Shown here: positions 9,064 to 58,418 of the stretch, in pieces | Layout of the letters: each line of letters begins with the position of its first letter | Numbering within the stretch: the stretch's first letter is position 1 | Origin: a virus | DNA: 64,000 nt | Reading direction: 5' to 3' (one strand) | IMG/VR virus record: IMGVR_UViG_3300014656_000015 | Position numbers and translations under genes: made by a program | Notes under the pieces: model-generated | The model's input: only the letters and a program-made list of their open reading frames with translations | Databases searched by the model: none | Told to the model about the DNA's origin: nothing

Positions 9064-9092
9064 TGGCCCCGTCTCGCGGGCCAATTCCTTAG
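9064..9092 (+). terminator. hairpin + AATTCCTTAG cassette end
   Basis: TGGCCC...GGGCCA stem followed by ATTCCTTAG, as at 54595-54619 and 54924-54949. Confidence 0.65.
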
Positions 9093-9095
9093 CCA

Positions 9096-9225
9096 GCTAA
9101 GAAACGGGGACCGGACGGGCCACCCCATCCGGTCCCTCAATAGCCTCATTCACTCAGCCCTCCTCTGCTGAGCCCAACACGGACCCGACGAGTAGGCAGT
9201 TGATACGGCTCAACCACCTGCTTCA
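9096..9225 (-). ncRNA. candidate structured small RNA
   Basis: Between a TGAAAA-N17-TATAAG promoter (9228-9256) and a hairpin+TTTCTTAGC end; three hairpins; no convincing ORF. Confidence 0.5.
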
Positions 9226-9289
9226 TCCTTATACCCCGAGCCCGAGCCGGTTTTCATGCAAGAACAGCAAAATTGCTGGGATAAGGCCC

Positions 9290-9366
9290 ATGGGAGCTGA
9301 AGCGCAGGCGCAAGGGCGAAGTCCCGGCTCTCAGGCTTCGGAGCTGCCCCGGGGTGTTTCCTTTAG
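9290..9366 (+). ncRNA. candidate structured small RNA
   Basis: Between TGCAAG-N17-GATAAG (9257-9285) and TTCCTTTAG; 9-bp stem 9291-9299/9325-9333. Confidence 0.4.
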
Positions 9367-9558
9367 GTGCCCAAGCATCCACATCGCGTAGTTCGCAATG
9401 GCGTTACGCTCAAGCTGGAGCAGGCCCTCCCGAAAGTCGTTCCGGACCAGGCACTGCTCGTACTCCTGGATGGAAGCACGGACTCGAGCCAGGTCCGCGT
9501 CGGGTCCCTGCTCCTCGGACTCGACGGGACGGCGCAGGACAAGATGTGCACTGATCAT
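9331..9558 (-). CDS. hypothetical protein
   Basis: 75 aa ORF with protein-like composition, divergent from the ligase-like gene. Confidence 0.45.
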   Translation of the reverse strand: MISAHLVLRRPVESEEQGPDADLARVRASIQEYEQCLVRNDFREGLLQLERNAIANYAMWMLGHLKETPRGSSEA

Positions 9559-12953: not shown

Positions 12954-13158
12954 CGTCAGCCCCCTTCCTGCGGAGCCGGGCCAGACCCTCCCGGACCTCG
13001 TCCCAGGTCGCGCTCGCCCGGAACGTCAGCTTGCCGGTCCTGGCCCTCGTCTCGAATCCGGTGTCGGTCACCACCAGAGCCCCGTAGGTCTCCGGCTCCG
13101 TCTCCTGATCCTCGGTCAACAGCCCCGAAACGTAGAGCTCCCTCTTCTCCCGCAACAT
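12862..13158 (-). CDS. hypothetical protein
   Basis: Strong AAGGAGG RBS before MLREKR; overlaps both neighbours. Confidence 0.45.
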   Translation of the reverse strand: MLREKRELYVSGLLTEDQETEPETYGALVVTDTGFETRARTGKLTFRASATWDEVREGLARLRRKGADDGHGAERAESEVGAQSELEYGDQSAGVGPN

Positions 13159-13699
13159 TCCTGCCTCCTTCCCATAGAAGCTGGACCATGATGCCCAGCT
13201 CGGCCTTTCCAATGACCTGCCTCCGACTCCTGCAACACATCAGGATCAGCTGCTCCGTACGCAGCCCCTGCACCTCCACCAACGGTAGGTTGAACAGGCT
13301 GATCACGCGCTCCGGATGCGTCTCCCCGATCCACCCCATCACCTCGACCACGGAGCCGCAGAACCAGCCAACACCGTACAGACCTCGAGACGCCGCCGCC
13401 GTGAAGATGCGATGTATCGACTCGAGCGGGGCATCGCCGGACCGCTCCTCGAGCTCCTCGAGCCGCACGTGCTGCAGCAGACCCCAAGGATCCCGTATCC
13501 GTCGGGTCTCCTCGGCGCCCAGCAGGGCCTCCGCATCCTCCCTGCCGTGGTACACCACCCGGATCCGCACCGTCTCCCCACTACCGGTCACATGCAGCTC
13601 GGAGACATGATCGCCGAGGCACAGCGCCGCGGCCACCGCCTCGATCAAATGGTCCCGAGACGGGACCTCGTTCAACATGAAGGAGCGTTCCAGCCTCAT
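12956..13699 (-). CDS. hypothetical protein
   Basis: 247 aa ORF coupled to the RHH gene; C-terminal ~65 aa is probably run-on. Confidence 0.65.
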   Translation of the reverse strand: MRLERSFMLNEVPSRDHLIEAVAAALCLGDHVSELHVTGSGETVRIRVVYHGREDAEALLGAEETRRIRDPWGLLQHVRLEELEERSGDAPLESIHRIFTAAASRGLYGVGWFCGSVVEVMGWIGETHPERVISLFNLPLVEVQGLRTEQLILMCCRSRRQVIGKAELGIMVQLLWEGGRNVAGEEGALRFGAVDRGSGDGAGDLRGSGGDRHRIRDEGQDRQADVPGERDLGRGPGGSGPAPQEGG

Positions 13700-17876: not shown

Positions 17877-18134
17877 ATGTCTCAGGTAGGAACCTGGTTC
17901 CGAGCCCTGGTGCTCGGAACACTATACATGGCAACGAACCTCGCTCGGGGAATGAGCGAGGAGAATGCCTGGCAGCTCGCTGCCAGGCGGACACTGGCGG
18001 GGTGCCCGTCCCGCCACTTCGAGCCCGACCTGGAAGAGATCGGCATGGAGCTCAGCTCCACCATGATCCGCTTCCGGGACGGGACCGCCACCCGGACCCC
18101 TACCGGGTGGAAGCTCGCCAAGTTTCCCACCTAG
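17877..18134 (+). CDS. small accessory cassette protein
   Basis: MSQVGTWF; framed by the promoter/RBS and GCCGC hairpin+TTCCATTAGC. Confidence 0.7.
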   Translation: MSQVGTWFRALVLGTLYMATNLARGMSEENAWQLAARRTLAGCPSRHFEPDLEEIGMELSSTMIRFRDGTATRTPTGWKLAKFPT

Positions 18135-18248
18135 CCGCATCCCGCGGCACTTCCATTAGCACCCTATTGGTTGCCCCATTCCAGTCCATAACAATAGAAA
18201 CGGTCGGAATCATTGAGCTCTATTGGCCGCTTATTGATCACTAAAGGC

Positions 18249-18292
18249 GTAAAACGAGGAGGCTATCGTGTCATAAGAATTATGGAAAGGAG
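18249..18292 (+). promoter_or_regulatory. ATAAG-class promoter plus RBS
   Basis: GTAAAA-N17-CATAAGAATTATGGAAAGGAG. Confidence 0.75.
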
Positions 18293-18300
18293 CACAAACA

Positions 18301-18633
18301 ATGCTCACAGACCTCAGGGAGGAGGAGGTTGTGGAGATCCGCAACTTCCTCAGCGAGAGAGAGGCGCAACGCCGCGCCGCTCTGTCGCCCGTAGAACGGG
18401 CGATAGAGGATTATGATTCTGAATCGCCTCGATCGATCGTGAGATTGATCGAGGCAGTTGAGGAGCAGGAGCGCGCCGAGAGGCGCGCGGATCTGGTGCC
18501 CAAGCTGATCGGGGGCGCCGCCCTAGTCGGCCTCATCGGCGCCGAGGTCCTCGCCATCCGGGCGGCCCTCAAGGCCCCCCGGACCCGGCGCGGCGCGATC
18601 ATGCGCGCCGCCATCAAATGGCTCACCCGCTAG
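18301..18633 (+). CDS. accessory cassette protein with a C-terminal TM helix
   Basis: LIGGAALVGLIGAEVLAI segment; ends at hairpin+TTTCCCTTAGC. Confidence 0.75.
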   Translation: MLTDLREEEVVEIRNFLSEREAQRRAALSPVERAIEDYDSESPRSIVRLIEAVEEQERAERRADLVPKLIGGAALVGLIGAEVLAIRAALKAPRTRRGAIMRAAIKWLTR

Positions 18634-18699
18634 CAGAGCGGGGTCGGAGCTCCCTCCCCAGCCGCACTCGCGGCATTTCCCTTAGCACGGTATAAGCAA

Positions 18700-18778
18700 T
18701 GTGTGGAAGCAGTGCTCACCTCCCCCATAGCCAGGGGTGTCCCCCTTTGAAGCGGAGCGCTGCTTCCACATCTCTTAC
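18700..18778 (+). ncRNA. candidate hairpin sRNA with a C-rich, anti-SD-like loop
   Basis: Follows TATAAG (18691); 16-bp stem TGTGGAAGCAGTGCTC/GAGCGCTGCTTCCACA; loop begins ACCTCCCCCAT. Confidence 0.55.
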
Positions 18779-18780
18779 CT

Positions 18781-18886
18781 GGCTAAAAGAAGGGCCCCGG
18801 GGATGAGCCGGGGCCGGATGGAAAGGAGGGGGGACCGGCGCGGGAGGGGACTGCGCCGAGTCCCCTGGTAGAGTAAACGAAGCCTA
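18781..18886 (-). ncRNA. candidate anti-RBS sRNA or 3'UTR-derived RNA
   Basis: Contains CCTCCTTTCCAT between hairpins; ends in hairpin+TTCTTTTAGC. Confidence 0.45.
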
Positions 18887-19489
18887 TCACGGGTCCCGGC
18901 GTTGCGCCAGGGCCCGCGCAACGGGTGCGTAGCTCCGACGATGTTGCGGGGAGGCCCCGTAGGCCTGGAGCGCCACGAGGTGGGTCGGCGTGCCGTAGCC
19001 CATGTTGGTCTCAAAGCCGTAGGGCTCGTAGGTGGGATCCGCGGCGAGACGTCGCATCATGGAGTCCCGGGCCACCTTGGCCAGCACACTGGCCGCAGCA
19101 ATGCTGGGGACCGCAGTGTCCCCATTCACGATGCAGCGTTGCCGCAGCTTCGGAATGCCACGAAAGGGCCGAGCCCCGTCAACATAGAGCTTGGCGTCTG
19201 GGAACCGCTCCCAGCACCGGGAGACCAGGTGGACCCCGAGCCAGGACCATGCCTGATCCACCCCGAGCCGGTCCAGCAGCCTGGGGCCGGTGGCGGCCAG
19301 GCACCAGTACTTGGCCTCAGCCACGATCCGAGGCACGACAGCTTCCCGCTGCTCCGCGCTCATCTTCTTGGAATCCCGGACCGCCTCGATCCGTTGATCC
19401 ACATCCAGGATCACGGCCCCCATCACCAGGGGGCCGGCAAGGGCCCCGTTCCCCACCTCGTCAACCCCGAGCACGAGGTATGTACTCAT
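18887..19489 (-). CDS. rnhB: ribonuclease HII
   Basis: GVDEVG, DSKK, VDG, SIAAASVLAKVARD, GYGT..H, HRRSY motifs intact. Confidence 0.95.
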   Translation of the reverse strand: MSTYLVLGVDEVGNGALAGPLVMGAVILDVDQRIEAVRDSKKMSAEQREAVVPRIVAEAKYWCLAATGPRLLDRLGVDQAWSWLGVHLVSRCWERFPDAKLYVDGARPFRGIPKLRQRCIVNGDTAVPSIAAASVLAKVARDSMMRRLAADPTYEPYGFETNMGYGTPTHLVALQAYGASPQHRRSYAPVARALAQRRDP

Positions 19490-19612: not shown

Positions 19613-20680
19613 CTATGTCTCGATGCTCGGCCGATACTCGTCCCGAGTCATATCCCAGGTCCACGCCACGGCATCCGACGCCGTCTGCACATCAGGAGGT
19701 ACTCGAAGCAGATACCGACGCCGGATACCGTCGTGCTCCGTCGCATCGGTAACCTCGACCGCGACCAGCGGCTCGTCATCGGGCAGCTCCAACCGATAGA
19801 GGCAGCCCCGTTCGTCACGGGACACGACCCGCGCCCCGTCCAGGACTCGCTCCAGCCCGACCCTCTCGATCATGACACGCCGAATCTCAGCGTTAGACTC
19901 ACTCAACACCTCGTCTCGGGTCAGCTCGTCGGAGCACAGGATCACCCGTTCCGGTACCCGAACCCCGTGCCAAGCGTAAACACCCCAACCATCGGGGTAA
20001 CCAATAGCCAGGGCATCGGGACAGTGAAGCCGACCGCGCTCATCGAGATGGAGCGAGGTCGGCAGTGGGGTCACCACAGCAACATCGCTGCATGGCCACC
20101 ACCACCCGATCAGCGAAGCGAGCCGGATCAACCCATCCAGCGGTGAGATGTCGATCCCGCAAACCTCACCGAAATAAATATAGAATCCAAGCCAGGGCGC
20201 ATCATGCACCCCGTAGGCAACCCAATTGACCGAGTCCCAGACCACGGCCCGAACCGAGTCCAGGACCGAGCCCCAAACCGAGTCCAGGACCGAGCCCCGA
20301 ACCGAGTCCAGGACCGAGTCCAGGACCGAGTCCAGGACCGAGGCCCGGACCGAGGCCCGGACCGAGCCCCGGACCGAGTCCAGGACCGAGGCCCGGACCG
20401 AGGCCCGGACCGAGGCCAGGACCGAGGCCAGGACCGAGGCCCGGACCGAGAAGCTACGGAGCACTACGGTACAAAGCACACCGGCCATCGGCGATGTGCT
20501 CTTCACTATCTGTGTCGGAGGCAGTAGGCCACCGGCCCGGTAGGCAGCGTTGATCGCTGGGCGAACCCGACGCAGGTCGATTCGACCGTCTCCCGTCGCT
20601 AGGCCGATCCGGGTCCAACGCTCGGCATAGACCGGCAGGAGCGCCTCCTGCTCAGAAGTCAGTGCCTCAATCCGCGACAC
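19613..20680 (-). CDS. DUF6745-like protein with SVxx tandem repeats
   Basis: LHLDERGRLHCPD...YPDGWGVYAWHGV, NAEIRRVMIE, YLLRVPP, AVAWTW motifs. Confidence 0.85.
   Translation of the reverse strand: MSRIEALTSEQEALLPVYAERWTRIGLATGDGRIDLRRVRPAINAAYRAGGLLPPTQIVKSTSPMAGVLCTVVLRSFSVRASVLASVLASVRASVRASVLDSVRGSVRASVRASVLDSVLDSVLDSVRGSVLDSVWGSVLDSVRAVVWDSVNWVAYGVHDAPWLGFYIYFGEVCGIDISPLDGLIRLASLIGWWWPCSDVAVVTPLPTSLHLDERGRLHCPDALAIGYPDGWGVYAWHGVRVPERVILCSDELTRDEVLSESNAEIRRVMIERVGLERVLDGARVVSRDERGCLYRLELPDDEPLVAVEVTDATEHDGIRRRYLLRVPPDVQTASDAVAWTWDMTRDEYRPSIET
20228..20449 (-). repeat. 12-nt tandem repeat, about 18.5 units, encoding SV(R/L/W)(A/D/G)
   Basis: Directly visible (A/C)GGACCGAG(T/G/C)CC array. 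Confidence 0.95.
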
Positions 20681-20987
20681 GACGAAGCTCCGTGGGGTGA
20701 TACTCCCGCTGCCGCACCACCCGGTACAGGCCCGGATCGAGGTCGATCCAGGCGTGCTCCTCATGCTCCAGCCGCGTTGCCTCACGCACCCGAAGCAGCA
20801 TTGCGGCCTGCGCGACGTAGAGCGCCGCCGCGATGGCGGGGACCGCATGGGCGTGCCCCGTCGCCTCGCCCTCCGCGAGAATCAGCCGGCCACGCCCGTC
20901 CGGCTCGACCTCGGTGTACTCCTCGGACATCTCGCTCTCGTCCATCCGGACAAGCAGCACGTCTCCCTGTCTCACCTGCTTCATCAT
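20667..20987 (-). CDS. conserved partner of DUF6745 proteins
   Basis: RQGDVLL, LAEGEATGHAH, HEEH, YRVVRQREY motifs; GGAAAGGAGG RBS. Confidence 0.85.
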   Translation of the reverse strand: MMKQVRQGDVLLVRMDESEMSEEYTEVEPDGRGRLILAEGEATGHAHAVPAIAAALYVAQAAMLLRVREATRLEHEEHAWIDLDPGLYRVVRQREYHPTELRRVAD

Positions 20988-26849: not shown

Positions 26850-27190
26850 TGAACCCTAGTTAGAACTCTAAAGTAGTATATTATATATTATACATACTAT
26901 ATAACACATACAGAATGATCCATGATCAGTATATCTTGATCAGCCAGCCCTGATCACAGTCAAGTAGTATATTTAGTTCTATCCTGTACATGACATGGTG
27001 CTATGGTACAAAACCCCGATATGAGGCGCGTCTAACTAGCTGAAAAGACCTAAACCGCATCGGTCAAAAGTGGCTGTTTCGCTGTCAACTCATGCAAATG
27101 CCCGATGAAAACGACAGTTGGGCCTGATCAGGTGCCTAGAGTGCTCACTGCCGTTTTCATCGGGCATTTCTACCGTCGGTGCGTGATCAA
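26850..27190. other. AT-rich intergenic region, candidate replication origin
   Basis: The most AT-rich stretch in the window; TGATCA at 26923/26937/26951; AAGTAGTATATT direct repeat; long inverted repeat. Confidence 0.5.
27096..27169. repeat. 23-bp inverted repeat (22/23 match)
   Basis: AAATGCCCGATGAAAACGACAGT ... ACTGCCGTTTTCATCGGGCATTT. Confidence 0.9.
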
Positions 27191-53509: not shown

Positions 53510-53583
53510 TTCCTGTGATAAGGGGTCTGTAGGCCCAATCCCAGGCTTCTTTGCTGCAAAGTGGCCGCTGGGATTGGGATAAG
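53494..53583 (+). promoter_or_regulatory. two tandem ATAAG-class promoters
   Basis: TGCAAA-N17-GATAAG at 53494-53522 and 53555-53583. Confidence 0.7.
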
Positions 53584-53642
53584 AACAATGAGTGGTCGAG
53601 CATTCTCCTTGCTCCGCACCACTCGGGAAAGGAGACTGTGAA

Positions 53643-54140
53643 ATGAGTGAGGAGAAGAGGGAGTGGCCGTCCATCCTGGACGCCGCTCTCGACGACCCCG
53701 CCGCGACAGCGGCGGGGGCAGTTCTGGGGGCGGCCATCCTGGCCGTCCCCACGATGTTGGTCTGCCGGTACCTCGAGGCCAGCCCCGTCGTGACGGGGTT
53801 GAGCACCGCAGGTGCCGGCCTGGCGGGCGCCGGTGGCGGCGCGACGGCGGTGGCGGCGAGTCGCCGCCGGTCGGTGCGGCGCACAGCGACCTCGGTGGCA
53901 TCGGCCATCGAGGGGGAGCTCGACACCTTCGACCGCCGGATCGCGGCGGTCGAGGGCCGGCTGGGGGCGGGGGACACCACTGTCAGGGTGGTGTTCCCAG
54001 ATGTCGCCGAGAGCCTCGGCGGTCTGCCGGAGACTGTCCGGCAGATTCGGGACATCCTCGAGGGTGCCCCGGACCCCGAGCCCCCGCCCAAGGCCACCGT
54101 CAAGAAGGGCAAGGGCGGAGACGCCCAGCCCACCGCGTAG
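53643..54140 (+). CDS. accessory membrane protein (two TM segments plus coiled coil)
   Basis: GGAAAGGAG RBS; ends at hairpin+TTTCTTAG. Confidence 0.7.
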   Translation: MSEEKREWPSILDAALDDPAATAAGAVLGAAILAVPTMLVCRYLEASPVVTGLSTAGAGLAGAGGGATAVAASRRRSVRRTATSVASAIEGELDTFDRRIAAVEGRLGAGDTTVRVVFPDVAESLGGLPETVRQIRDILEGAPDPEPPPKATVKKGKGGDAQPTA

Positions 54141-55342: not shown

Positions 55343-57199
55343 TTAGGCCACTATACCCGGAGCGAACTCCACGCTGCCCGGGAAGAGTGGGATGATGATG
55401 TCGGGACGCGGCCGCACGATCATGCTGGCCAGGAAGCAGTAGAGGATGGAGTGGAACGTGTCATCACTCTTGCCTCGGGTCAGCTTGTACTGCGTCATGT
55501 GGAGCCGGGCATTGTACTCGGCAAAGATGTTCAGCATGTCGGCGGCGAAGGGTTCCTCCCACTCCTTCCAGGCCGGGAACCGGATCCGCTGGTTGCGGAT
55601 CGCGCTGAAGATGTCGCTCATGATCTCGGTACGGTGCAGCATGAAGCGGCCCAGCTCGGGCTCCCACTTGATCTTGGTCTTCGGGTTGCCCGTGTACTGG
55701 TACCGGGCGACCCGGGACGCACCGAAGTTCCGCATGAGCCAGTCATTGCGGTCGAAGCCGCCGCCGTAGTCCGAGCCCAGGATCTTGAAGTCAACCGCAT
55801 GTAGCAGCTTGGCGATGCGCCGGAGCTGGCGTCTCGGGTCCAGATCCTCCCCCACGAAGCGGTGTGCAAAGAAGATCTGGAAGATGCCGTCGATGTACCC
55901 ACCTAACGTAAGTAGTGAGAATGACGCATCTTCCCCGGTCCCGTGATCCAGTCCGGCAAAGACCCCGCTCTCGCACCGCTTCGCGGTCTCCAGCACCGCC
56001 CCGATCCGGATGGTCTCATTGCAGCACCGGATGATGTGGCTGCGCTTGAGCGGGCGCTGCCCCGCGTCGTGGGACAGCCCGAGCACCTCGTTGTTGAACT
56101 GGGTCTCGTCGTACTGTTCCAGGTGTGTCAGGATCTCGGTCCACTTCTCCCCTTGCATCCAGGGCACCATGAGCTGGGAGATGTGGTAGCCCTCGAAGGT
56201 GACCCGGTTCTCGTTGTCCGCGGTGACCGGCTGCAGCGAGACCCACTGCGCCAAGGGGTCGGCGGGGTCGATAGGTTCCCCGCACCGAGCACAGATCGGT
56301 CCCTCCTTGCCGATGTTCTTGATCCCGAGCAGGTTCCAGTGCCAGGAGGAGGGGTCGTTCGGGACGCCATGGTGCTGGCACGGCACGGCCCACTCGTTCT
56401 GGGTCGAGAACTCGGTCCAGTACTTGTGGATCGAGTTGTCCAGGCTCTTCGGCGTGCCAGCATAATCGAAGAGACCCCAGTGGGAGTGCGACGTGCACTG
56501 CTCGATGACCGGCACCGATGGGCCATGCACGTCCTGGAACTCGTCGATCTGAACCTTGTCGCTGGCAATGCCTCTGGCCCGGTCCGCGGAGAGGAAGGCG
56601 TAGCGCACCCGGACCTGGGAACGGTTCCGGAACTGCTTGAAGAACACGTTCTGGCTCAGGTTCCGGTTCACCATGTACTGGAGCTCGGGGCTGATCTCCA
56701 GCGGGTCCTTCAGCCGATCCACGCTGAAGACCTGGGCCTGGGCCGCGGTCGGGCACACATAGAGCGTCTTGAAGGCGGGCACGATGGCGCTGTACGCGAT
56801 GGCGCTGTTACCGAGGTAAGTCGACTTCTCGCTCTGCCGGCTGTAGACCAGGAGCTTGCGCCGGGCCGGGGAGTCGTAGACCGTCTTGAGGTAGCGCCGA
56901 CCCTCGAAGCTGAAGGGGGTGATGGCGCCCTCGATCGGGAGCTTGATGGCGAACTCGGTGAACTCGGACGGGGTGACCTCGACCTGGCGCAGCTTCCGCA
57001 GGGACTCGAGCTCCTGCTCGAACAGGATGCTCTCCATCTCGGCGCTGGCCAGCTCATCCTCCTCCTGTAGCAGGAGGGCCTCGAGCTCATCCTCCAATCC
57101 CTGGTCCAGCTCTTCCTGCGCCAGGACCCGTTTCGAGTCGAGGTAGAAGTCCCGGACCTCTTCGGAGGCAGCAGCCATCCCCTGCAGGACTTGAACCAT
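55343..57199 (-). CDS. terL: terminase large subunit (GpA-like); 5' end disrupted by an IS
   Basis: SRQSEKST Walker A variant, DRARGI, IDEFQD Walker B, GTPK, VPC Zn segment, AGLDHG nuclease motif, DDTFHS. Confidence 0.9.
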   Translation of the reverse strand: MVQVLQGMAAASEEVRDFYLDSKRVLAQEELDQGLEDELEALLLQEEDELASAEMESILFEQELESLRKLRQVEVTPSEFTEFAIKLPIEGAITPFSFEGRRYLKTVYDSPARRKLLVYSRQSEKSTYLGNSAIAYSAIVPAFKTLYVCPTAAQAQVFSVDRLKDPLEISPELQYMVNRNLSQNVFFKQFRNRSQVRVRYAFLSADRARGIASDKVQIDEFQDVHGPSVPVIEQCTSHSHWGLFDYAGTPKSLDNSIHKYWTEFSTQNEWAVPCQHHGVPNDPSSWHWNLLGIKNIGKEGPICARCGEPIDPADPLAQWVSLQPVTADNENRVTFEGYHISQLMVPWMQGEKWTEILTHLEQYDETQFNNEVLGLSHDAGQRPLKRSHIIRCCNETIRIGAVLETAKRCESGVFAGLDHGTGEDASFSLLTLGGYIDGIFQIFFAHRFVGEDLDPRRQLRRIAKLLHAVDFKILGSDYGGGFDRNDWLMRNFGASRVARYQYTGNPKTKIKWEPELGRFMLHRTEIMSDIFSAIRNQRIRFPAWKEWEEPFAADMLNIFAEYNARLHMTQYKLTRGKSDDTFHSILYCFLASMIVRPRPDIIIPLFPGSVEFAPGIVA

Positions 57200-57206
57200 G
57201 GTGCTC

Positions 57207-58418
57207 TCAGGTGAACACATAGCGGCCTGCTTCCTGTTTCGCAGAGGACAGTTTCACGACGGCCATCAGACCGACGTCAGCGCTCCCCTCTCCACAGGCT
57301 GTCACGGCACGGGCTGCCGCGATGTTTCTCAGGTTTACGGCGGCATTAACGTCGCGGTCATGGACGACGCCACACCCTGGACAGGACCACTTTCGGACGG
57401 ACAGCGGGAGGCTCTCGACAACGTGGCCGCAGTCGGAGCACATCTTCGACGACGGGAACCAGCGGTCAACCATGACAACCTCGGAACCTGCGAGCGGGGC
57501 CTTGTAGGTGAGCTGCCGCCTCATCTCCGACATGCTGGCATCGGCGACCGACTTGGCGAGGTGATGGTTCTTCAACATCCCGCTGACGTTCAGGTCTTCG
57601 ATGCCGATCCATCGGAAGTCTCGGACGAGCCGAGACGTCAGCTTGTGGGTCACGTCGCTTCGGATGTTGGCGATACGCTCGTGGACGCGCTGAATCCTCG
57701 CCTTCGTCTTGCGCCAGTTCTTTCCGCCTTTCGTCCGCCTCGACAACTCGCGCTGAAGTCGCTTGAGCCGCTTCTCATGGAACCGCAGGGCGCGCGGAGC
57801 TTCCACCTTCGCCCCGTCGGAGAGCACGGCGAGGTCTCGAACCCCGAGGTCTATGCCACACACCGCGTGAGTCTTGCAGGCGTGCGGGTACGACCAGCGG
57901 GAGTGATCAACCTCGACCTGGACGGAGACGAACCAGTGGTCGACGTGCTTCGTGAATCGGGCCGACAGCACCTTACCGGGGAATCGAAGCGTCTCCCTCA
58001 TGCGGAGCCAGCCGAGCTTCGGGACGCGGACACGACGGCCATCAAACGTCAGGGCTCGCGCCTCGATGGCGAACCCTTCAAGGCACCGCCCACGCTTCTT
58101 GAATCGAGGATACCCAGGCTTGGAGTTTCCAGCCTTGATGCGTCGGAAGAAGTGGCCGAAGGCAGCGCCGAGGTCAGCGAGTGCCTGGTTCGTGACCTTC
58201 CAGGGAAGCTCGGCCATCCACGGAAAGTCATCGGCCTTGCGGGCGTTCAACTCGGTGTTGAGCTGCTGCCACGACGGCTTCTCTCCGCCGTTGTAGAGTT
58301 CTTGCCAGCGGGCGAGGCCGTGGTTCCACACGAACCTCGCCGTCCCGGCGCACCGCTCGAAGAACGACGCCTGGACGTTGTTCGGATCGAGCTGAATACG
58401 CTGGCCGAGGATGGTCAC
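57207..58418 (-). CDS. tnpB: RNA-guided endonuclease TnpB
   Basis: GTARFVWN, PRFKKR, GIDLG, IEDLNV, SSKMCSDCG..CPGCG, DRDVNAA; RuvC D-E-D intact; GTG start overlaps the RHH stop. Confidence 0.95.
   Translation of the reverse strand: MTILGQRIQLDPNNVQASFFERCAGTARFVWNHGLARWQELYNGGEKPSWQQLNTELNARKADDFPWMAELPWKVTNQALADLGAAFGHFFRRIKAGNSKPGYPRFKKRGRCLEGFAIEARALTFDGRRVRVPKLGWLRMRETLRFPGKVLSARFTKHVDHWFVSVQVEVDHSRWSYPHACKTHAVCGIDLGVRDLAVLSDGAKVEAPRALRFHEKRLKRLQRELSRRTKGGKNWRKTKARIQRVHERIANIRSDVTHKLTSRLVRDFRWIGIEDLNVSGMLKNHHLAKSVADASMSEMRRQLTYKAPLAGSEVVMVDRWFPSSKMCSDCGHVVESLPLSVRKWSCPGCGVVHDRDVNAAVNLRNIAAARAVTACGEGSADVGLMAVVKLSSAKQEAGRYVFT

Follow-up and report, generated by a model that had tools for sequence, protein, structure and literature searches.

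A candidate ORF-less transcription module with a long hairpin as its only cargo in a large high-GC phage

The gap that separates a 110-aa phage ORFan (+ strand) from the convergent rnhB (- strand) holds an element that we read, with moderate confidence, as a minimal ORF-less transcription module. It lies in a variable region of a ~198-kb high-GC phage, and a long hairpin would be its sole cargo, serving mainly as a terminator and insulator. The window, by which we mean the whole stretch of 64,000 nucleotides that was analysed (IMG/VR record IMGVR_UViG_3300014656_000015), comes from a metagenomic contig of 197,587 bp and 64% G+C. The contig is identified as that of a phage by its terminase large subunit, its phage-type DinG-like helicase and its many ORFans. 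Three contigs with this rnhB or this locus were found and all represent the same genome, with 1 mismatch in 4.5 kb and 0 at the locus. The three are identical there and offer no variation to compare. The features of the locus are listed in Table 1.

Table 1. Features of the hairpin locus and of its two flanking genes (positions in the window)
Feature	Position	Strand	Properties	Basis
110-aa ORFan	18301..18633	+	final protein gene in the + strand cassette array	ORF list
Terminator of the 110-aa gene	18661..18688	+	5-bp GC hairpin (18661-18674) and tail of the hairpin+CTTAG class	terminator scan
Phage-type promoter motif GGTATAAG	18689..18696	+	exact 8-nt extended consensus	matrix from other sites
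Long hairpin	18701..18771	+	17 pairs (two G-U, one of them terminal), 37-nt loop	RNA folding
C-rich 5' side of the loop	18717..18732	+	predicted mostly single-stranded	mean unpaired probability 0.71
Inner 5-bp hairpin inside the loop	18733..18746	+		MFE and centroid structures
Tail after the hairpin	18766..18780	+	like the phage terminator tails, with C in place of the G of TTAG (CTTAC, not CTTAG)	
rnhB convergent terminator	18783..18815	-	8-bp GC stem (18793-18815) and T-rich tail; right-hand module boundary	terminator scan
rnhB (RNase HII)	18887..19489	-	convergent neighbour	Pfam RNase_HII 1.7e-26

The two boundaries of the element are set by terminators. The terminator of the 110-aa gene is weak, with a hairpin energy of -9.9 kcal/mol; its tail ends with TTAGCAC at 18688 and ranks 5 of 127,870 on the tail matrix described below. 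The rnhB terminator has a hairpin energy of -18.1 kcal/mol and is the strongest T-tract terminator in the region. The ~92 nt between the two terminators consist of GGTATAAG, 4-6 bases, the long hairpin and a pyrimidine-rich tail. The 110-aa ORFan belongs to no Pfam or PHROG family, and no homologs were found among 5.8 billion proteins. One cassette further upstream, the terminator and TTAGCAC after the 85-aa gene (18135-18170) are a near-copy of the stretch 18661-18696 after the 110-aa gene, with a core of 20 nt and 2 differences at 18143-18162. This terminator is followed on its 3' side by CCTATTGG, a degenerate version of the GGTATAAG promoter.

The long hairpin is real and far from chance. 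Positions 18702-18717 pair with 18755-18770 in 16 pairs with one internal G-U (U18713-G18759), just as a sequence-only reading of this DNA had described the stem, and a terminal G18701-U18771 adds a 17th pair. The loop comprises the 37 nt from 18718 to 18754. Its first C-run takes part in alternative pairings in suboptimal structures, and TCTCTTAC stands at 18771-18778. On the + strand the hairpin folds with -39.2 kcal/mol (z -4.9), on the - strand with -44.3 (z -5.5), and the 80-nt RNA from the predicted start with -38.3 kcal/mol (z -5.6). In each of these three fold tests 0 of 200 shuffles folded as stably, and the hairpin was retained when it was folded with 200 nt of context.

The element had also been called a gene-less cassette, and this description holds. 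Neither the ORF list nor the sequence contains a credible ORF or RBS between 18697 and 18780, and no tRNA or tmRNA was found in the hairpin region. The sole ATG of this interval, at 18699, opens a small ORF of 36 codons, which was rejected because it has no RBS, begins upstream of the predicted transcription start and lies inside the stem. Rfam gave no match at the gathering score, and a search of 18100-18950 at E<=10 returned unrelated weak matches only. A second copy of the hairpin was found neither in the 64-kb window nor in the 42.6 kb of the relative described below, which has a protein gene behind the same promoter. The stem 16-mer had 32 single chance matches in IMG/VR and no paired arms, a two-arm pattern search of 185,579 species genomes gave 0 matches, and blastn of the region 17.7-19.0 kb against GenBank phages gave no match.

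The accessory units of this phage follow a common grammar, in which a G[GT]TATAAG promoter and a short leader that contains a GGAAAGGAG RBS precede the gene, and a GC hairpin with a tail that ends in CTTAG comes after it. Of the 11 TATAAG sites in the window, 8 have a GGAAAGGAG RBS and a start codon within 4-30 nt downstream, and 12 GC hairpins in the phage precede a conserved tail ending in TTAG. At the hairpin locus TATAAG occupies 18691-18696, three bases past the end of the previous unit (18688), in agreement with the sequence-only reading, which had placed it right behind the preceding cassette. On a promoter matrix that was trained on 9 other sites, with the studied site left out, it ranked 15th of ~128,000 positions. 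All the sites that outranked it are intergenic and stand before an RBS or a structured leader. The spacing from promoter to hairpin is 4-6 nt and there is no evident -35 box. Taken as a -10-type element, TATAAG would place the transcription start at ~18701-18703, where the stem begins, or possibly up to ~6 nt earlier if a phage polymerase initiates inside the motif. Two further units with a promoter of this class, a hairpin+TTAG end and no obvious protein gene were seen in the window, at 9100-9233 (-) and 9281-9368 (+). The former ranked 8th on the promoter matrix and has a possible 18-codon ORF behind GGAGG, which was seen by eye only.

The tail after the hairpin was scored with a matrix trained on 12 other tails, again with the studied one left out. 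On the + strand it ranked 16 of 127,870, right behind the recognised terminators, whereas the - strand tail of the hairpin ranked only 207th, which marks the + strand as the functional orientation. There are 5 T among 11 nt of the tail, and the generic terminator scan did not pick the hairpin with its tail. The G of TTAG, otherwise invariant in the tails of this phage, is missing from it. Like an intrinsic terminator, the element has a GC-rich stem that is followed at once by a pyrimidine/T-rich tail in the correct orientation. It differs in its dimensions, with a stem of 17 bp and a loop of 37 nt compared to stems of 5-13 bp and loops of 3-8 nt in the other terminators of the phage, in the tail itself (CTTAC, not CTTAG), and in that the hairpin follows a promoter and not a stop codon. 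Since two independent motif matches occur in the right order and orientation, ~75 nt apart, the element looks like a genuine + strand promoter-to-terminator unit.

A scan of IMG/VR for the 21-nt promoter-leader consensus yielded a single relative, IMGVR_UViG_3300045116_000607 (G001), with 42.6 kb. G001 is collinear with the window from ~18.9 to 57 kb, has a TerL that is 83% and an rnhB that is 57-59% identical, and shares the promoter and the hairpin+CTTAG grammar. Its corresponding locus (L039) begins with a homolog of the 110-aa gene (52% identical), a homologous terminator, a 34-nt spacer, GGGTATAAG and an RBS. Behind them lie a RadC-like JAB-domain gene of 159 aa (Pfam 1.7e-35), a small hairpin with its CTTAG tail and, at once, the rnhB terminator, which is kept in G001 with compensatory stem changes. 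The GGGTATAAG that drives the RadC-like gene is syntenic with the promoter at 18689-18696. The hairpin of the window occupies the exact slot of the 5' UTR, RadC gene and terminator of G001, with the same promoter in front, and its tail is the positional counterpart of the tail that ends the RadC unit, immediately ahead of that of the rnhB terminator. Neither a RadC gene nor a remnant of one was found in the window. That the hairpin itself is a remnant of RadC or of its 5' UTR was rejected, because there is no similarity and the alignment is unreliable.

G001 also contains a tandem duplicate of the 110-aa-gene cassette (L039 1-420) with the end of a paralog, the same terminator and GGGTATAAG. 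In this duplicate the start of RadC stops after ~19 codons and is followed by the CATAAG promoter of the next copy. Since G001 carries a tandem unit copy with a truncated RadC start, the cassettes of these phages recombine, and the comparison of the two genomes indicates that the locus is a variable region, with duplication, truncation and exchange of cassettes. The gene adjoining rnhB in the window (19613-20848, -) encodes a DUF6745 protein, has ~17-24 tandem 12-nt repeats in its N-terminal half (20204-20491), and is missing as a whole from the collinear G001. The TerL ORF has 1029 aa in G001 (L037 6376-9465, -) and 625 aa in the window (55343-57220, -); an insertion of ~1.2 kb splits the TerL similarity in G001 and could be an intein or a homing element.

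The other searches for relatives were made with single proteins and in metagenomes. The best non-self match of rnhB among 5.8 billion proteins was only 46% identical. In single-protein scans of IMG/VR no true relative was found, neither with the helicase nor with rnhB, which matched only an unrelated 43%-GC contig, and two metagenome scans gave nothing useful. Genomes with a TerL of 52-60% identity were rejected as relatives, having either no rnhB or no synteny and cassette grammar. L045 and L046, which have only rnhB in common, were also rejected, as were L040 and L041, which are chance motif matches.

In the ORF-less module that we favour, RNA polymerase that starts at ~18701-18703 and ends at ~18775-18780 would make a transcript containing nothing but the hairpin. 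This stem-loop RNA, roughly 70-80 nt long, would be very stable, and such a small hairpin RNA is probably made. The first role of the hairpin would be that of the terminator of the module. It would also block + strand transcription before it enters the convergent rnhB, both that from the module promoter and the read-through of the weak upstream terminator (-9.9 vs -38 kcal/mol). The module would have arisen by cassette replacement or cargo loss, through recombination among repeated regulatory sequences as in the PeSL cassettes discussed below, since G001 holds the RadC-like gene in the same slot. It is not a plain deletion scar, because a crossover between the flanking terminators would also have removed the promoter. 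A replacement by a different cargo is possible, including an RNA with its own function. The 17-bp stem and the 37-nt structured loop, unlike those of the other terminators of the phage, speak against the terminator role, and a structured loop of 37 nt is not needed for termination. The intact consensus promoter and the perfect stem could reflect selection for the RNA itself.

Such a function had been proposed by the sequence-only reading, namely that an sRNA with an anti-SD-like loop silences host or phage RBSs. In the form considered here, the hairpin RNA is the cargo and acts in trans as an anti-leader (anti-SD) sRNA. Its C-rich loop would pair with the shared leader or with host RBSs and lower translation; the leader targets would be the TATGG and GGAGG blocks of the TATAAG-class mRNAs, resulting in a class-wide shut-off. 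We consider this reading unlikely. The anti-SD-like core CACCTCC is indeed present at 18717-18723, but it is no signal in itself: the heptamer occurs 20 times in the window, where 19.5 occurrences are expected by chance. When the loop was scanned for duplexes along both strands of the window, the best non-self site had -29.6, no better than the -29.4 to -32.1 reached by shuffled loops, and the leaders were far from the top with -10 to -17. No target beat the shuffled loops, and the proposed silencing of RBSs has no more than a weak hint in its favour.

The direct comparison with 12 leaders was more favourable. The loop segment, on the side of the loop that is predicted to be mostly unpaired, gave a mean duplex energy of -13.1 kcal/mol. 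It thereby beat 99.8% of the shuffled loops (mean -8.3; 0.2% reach the value of the loop, p ~0.002) and 96% of the natural C-rich 17-mers of the window (mean -9.9; 4% reach it, p ~0.04), which places the leader pairing only moderately above the controls. In sequence, the 5' side of the loop comes close to an antisense copy of the shared leader of the phage, only with a shorter middle. The corresponding rare bipartite pattern CCTCC-N1-3-CCATA, in a test designed after the loop was seen, occurred 5 times vs 0.37 expected; 3 of these occurrences correspond to real leaders on the opposite strand. The only other non-leader match to this pattern is CCTCCTTCCCATA at 13164-13176 (+), which on the - strand is RBS-like and lies inside or beside the gene 12956-13699. 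An intact promoter and a perfect stem fit with selection for an sRNA. However, the predicted leader pairing is weaker than that of a 16S-type anti-SD reference, and therefore the hairpin RNA would need to be abundant to compete with ribosomes. Since the hairpin is absent from G001, the only relative, it is not a conserved regulator of the lineage, and the loop conservation in relatives to which the sequence-only reading had looked is not seen. In these duplex models the pairing of loop and leader is a hint and gives no support for the silencing of RBSs.

Gram-positive bacteria possess regulatory RNAs with C-rich loops, such as 6C RNA, RsaE/RoxS and RNAIII, in which an unpaired C-rich loop is complementary to G-rich RBSs. 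The window hairpin is similar in that it is predicted to present an unpaired C-rich stretch complementary to such RBSs. In contrast, it has a single C-rich loop in one long stem, matches no sRNA family in Rfam, and shows neither conservation nor a standout target. The window RNA is not a member of the 6C RNA, RsaE/RoxS or RNAIII families; by analogy, it may work like C-rich-loop RNAs. For the trans-acting reading, the 6C RNA work offers a precedent of C-rich loops versus G-rich RBSs (PMC6486639).

A perfect 11-nt antisense of the leader lies 50 nt away on the other strand, in the rnhB 3' UTR, and anti-leader sequences may therefore be a theme of the locus. This exact antisense of the leader/RBS, CCTCCTTTCCA on the - strand, is found at 18816-18835 (-) between the stop codon and the terminator of rnhB. 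G001 has it unchanged (L039 1455-1475), whereas the terminator stem beside it differs by compensatory substitutions. Read on the + strand, the region looks like an RBS, with no start codon after it in either phage. It is conceivable, although we hold it to be distinctly doubtful, that the hairpin loop and CCTCCTTTCCA both pair with the 5' leader common to the TATAAG-class mRNAs and bring about a timed, class-wide shut-off of translation. T4 RegB cuts early mRNAs at GGAG sites, and an anti-leader RNA, if true, would be its RNA-based counterpart. Elsewhere in the two phages (53578-53650, + in the window; L037 4464-4545 in G001), a GATAAG/TATAAG promoter is followed by a leader hairpin with the loop ATTCTCCTT. 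This loop is conserved in both phages, whereas the stems differ yet still pair. It is complementary to AAGGAGA of the RBS ~12 nt downstream and is a candidate for a cis-acting anti-SD loop or translational control element.

The element could be simpler than the promoter-bearing module that we favour. As a plain fail-safe or bidirectional terminator, it would carry an inactive TATAAG that stems from partly self-complementary flanks and the shared TAAG/CTTA. The position of the hairpin between convergent genes, the weakness of the upstream terminator, a T-rich stretch also on the - strand side and the weak pairing of the outer flanks in the folds (TATAAG region with the CTTAC tail) are consistent with this. 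We nevertheless think it quite unlikely, as the site agrees in all positions with the 8-nt extended promoter consensus and ranks among real promoters, and G001 has a promoter at the same position. For a bidirectional function the - strand tail is poor (rank 207), and rnhB already owns the strongest T-tract terminator of the region. Convergent terminators elsewhere simply abut (window 9080-9110; G001 L039 1390-1454).

A function at the DNA level was also considered: a cruciform, a site for recombination or of the attC type, a miniature inverted-repeat mobile element, or a signal for replication or packaging. It would suit a long near-perfect inverted repeat at a junction where the gene content of relatives differs, but we hold it to be very improbable. 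The sequence is single-copy in 64 kb, is absent from G001, IMG/VR and 185,579 species genomes, and has neither a target-site duplication at its flanks nor a recombinase among the neighbouring genes scanned. A better candidate for an origin is the AT-rich region at 26.85-27.2 kb, which contains a 23-bp inverted repeat of its own. An integron attC site was rejected, since the arms lack the RYYYAAC/GTTRRRY cores and the scanned neighbours include no recombinase. The 23-bp inverted repeat of the AT-rich region (27096-27169) is 96% complementary with 28 nt between its arms and stands beside an AT-rich tract with repeated TGATCA.

Phage morons, as defined by Hendrix and colleagues, are autonomous promoter-gene-terminator units inserted between phage genes. 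The window unit is like a moron in being self-contained between two genes, in differing among relatives and in having its own predicted promoter and terminator. Morons, however, carry a protein gene by definition, and the window unit has none. The closest described system to the window module is the PeSL (promoter-early stem-loop) cassettes of the T4-type phages RB49 and phi1, which combine a promoter with a stem-loop that serves as terminator (Arbiol et al. 2010, PMC2839356). PeSLs are short repeated intergenic modules that flank non-essential ORFans in variable regions, and it is precisely at them that related genomes diverge in gene content; their recombination inserts, deletes and replaces cargo, and the units stay transcriptionally insulated (PMC2839356). 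The window unit likewise has a promoter at its 5' end and a stem-loop with a tail at its 3' end, both of predicted activity. The same terminator and promoter flank a RadC-like gene in G001 and only the hairpin in the window. The motifs are different, since the window has the -10-like G[GT]TATAAG and a hairpin with a CTTAG tail, whereas PeSLs have sigma-70 consensus promoters with AT-rich upstream regions. The window genome, moreover, is high-GC and unrelated to T4. A unit that consists wholly of one long hairpin does not occur in the available part of the PeSL description (PMC2839356).

The element would reveal a new regulatory principle only in case its RNA does act on the shared leader. The locus helps to define the promoter and terminator signals of this phage and, for annotation, such units should neither be called genes nor dismissed as spacers. 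If our main reading is true, the locus would be a clean example of accessory cargo shuffling in large uncultured phages. Self-insulated modules would then recombine at shared regulatory sequences in a PeSL-like manner, with a different motif set and in an unrelated high-GC lineage, and the same slot would hold a protein gene in one phage and an RNA hairpin alone in another.
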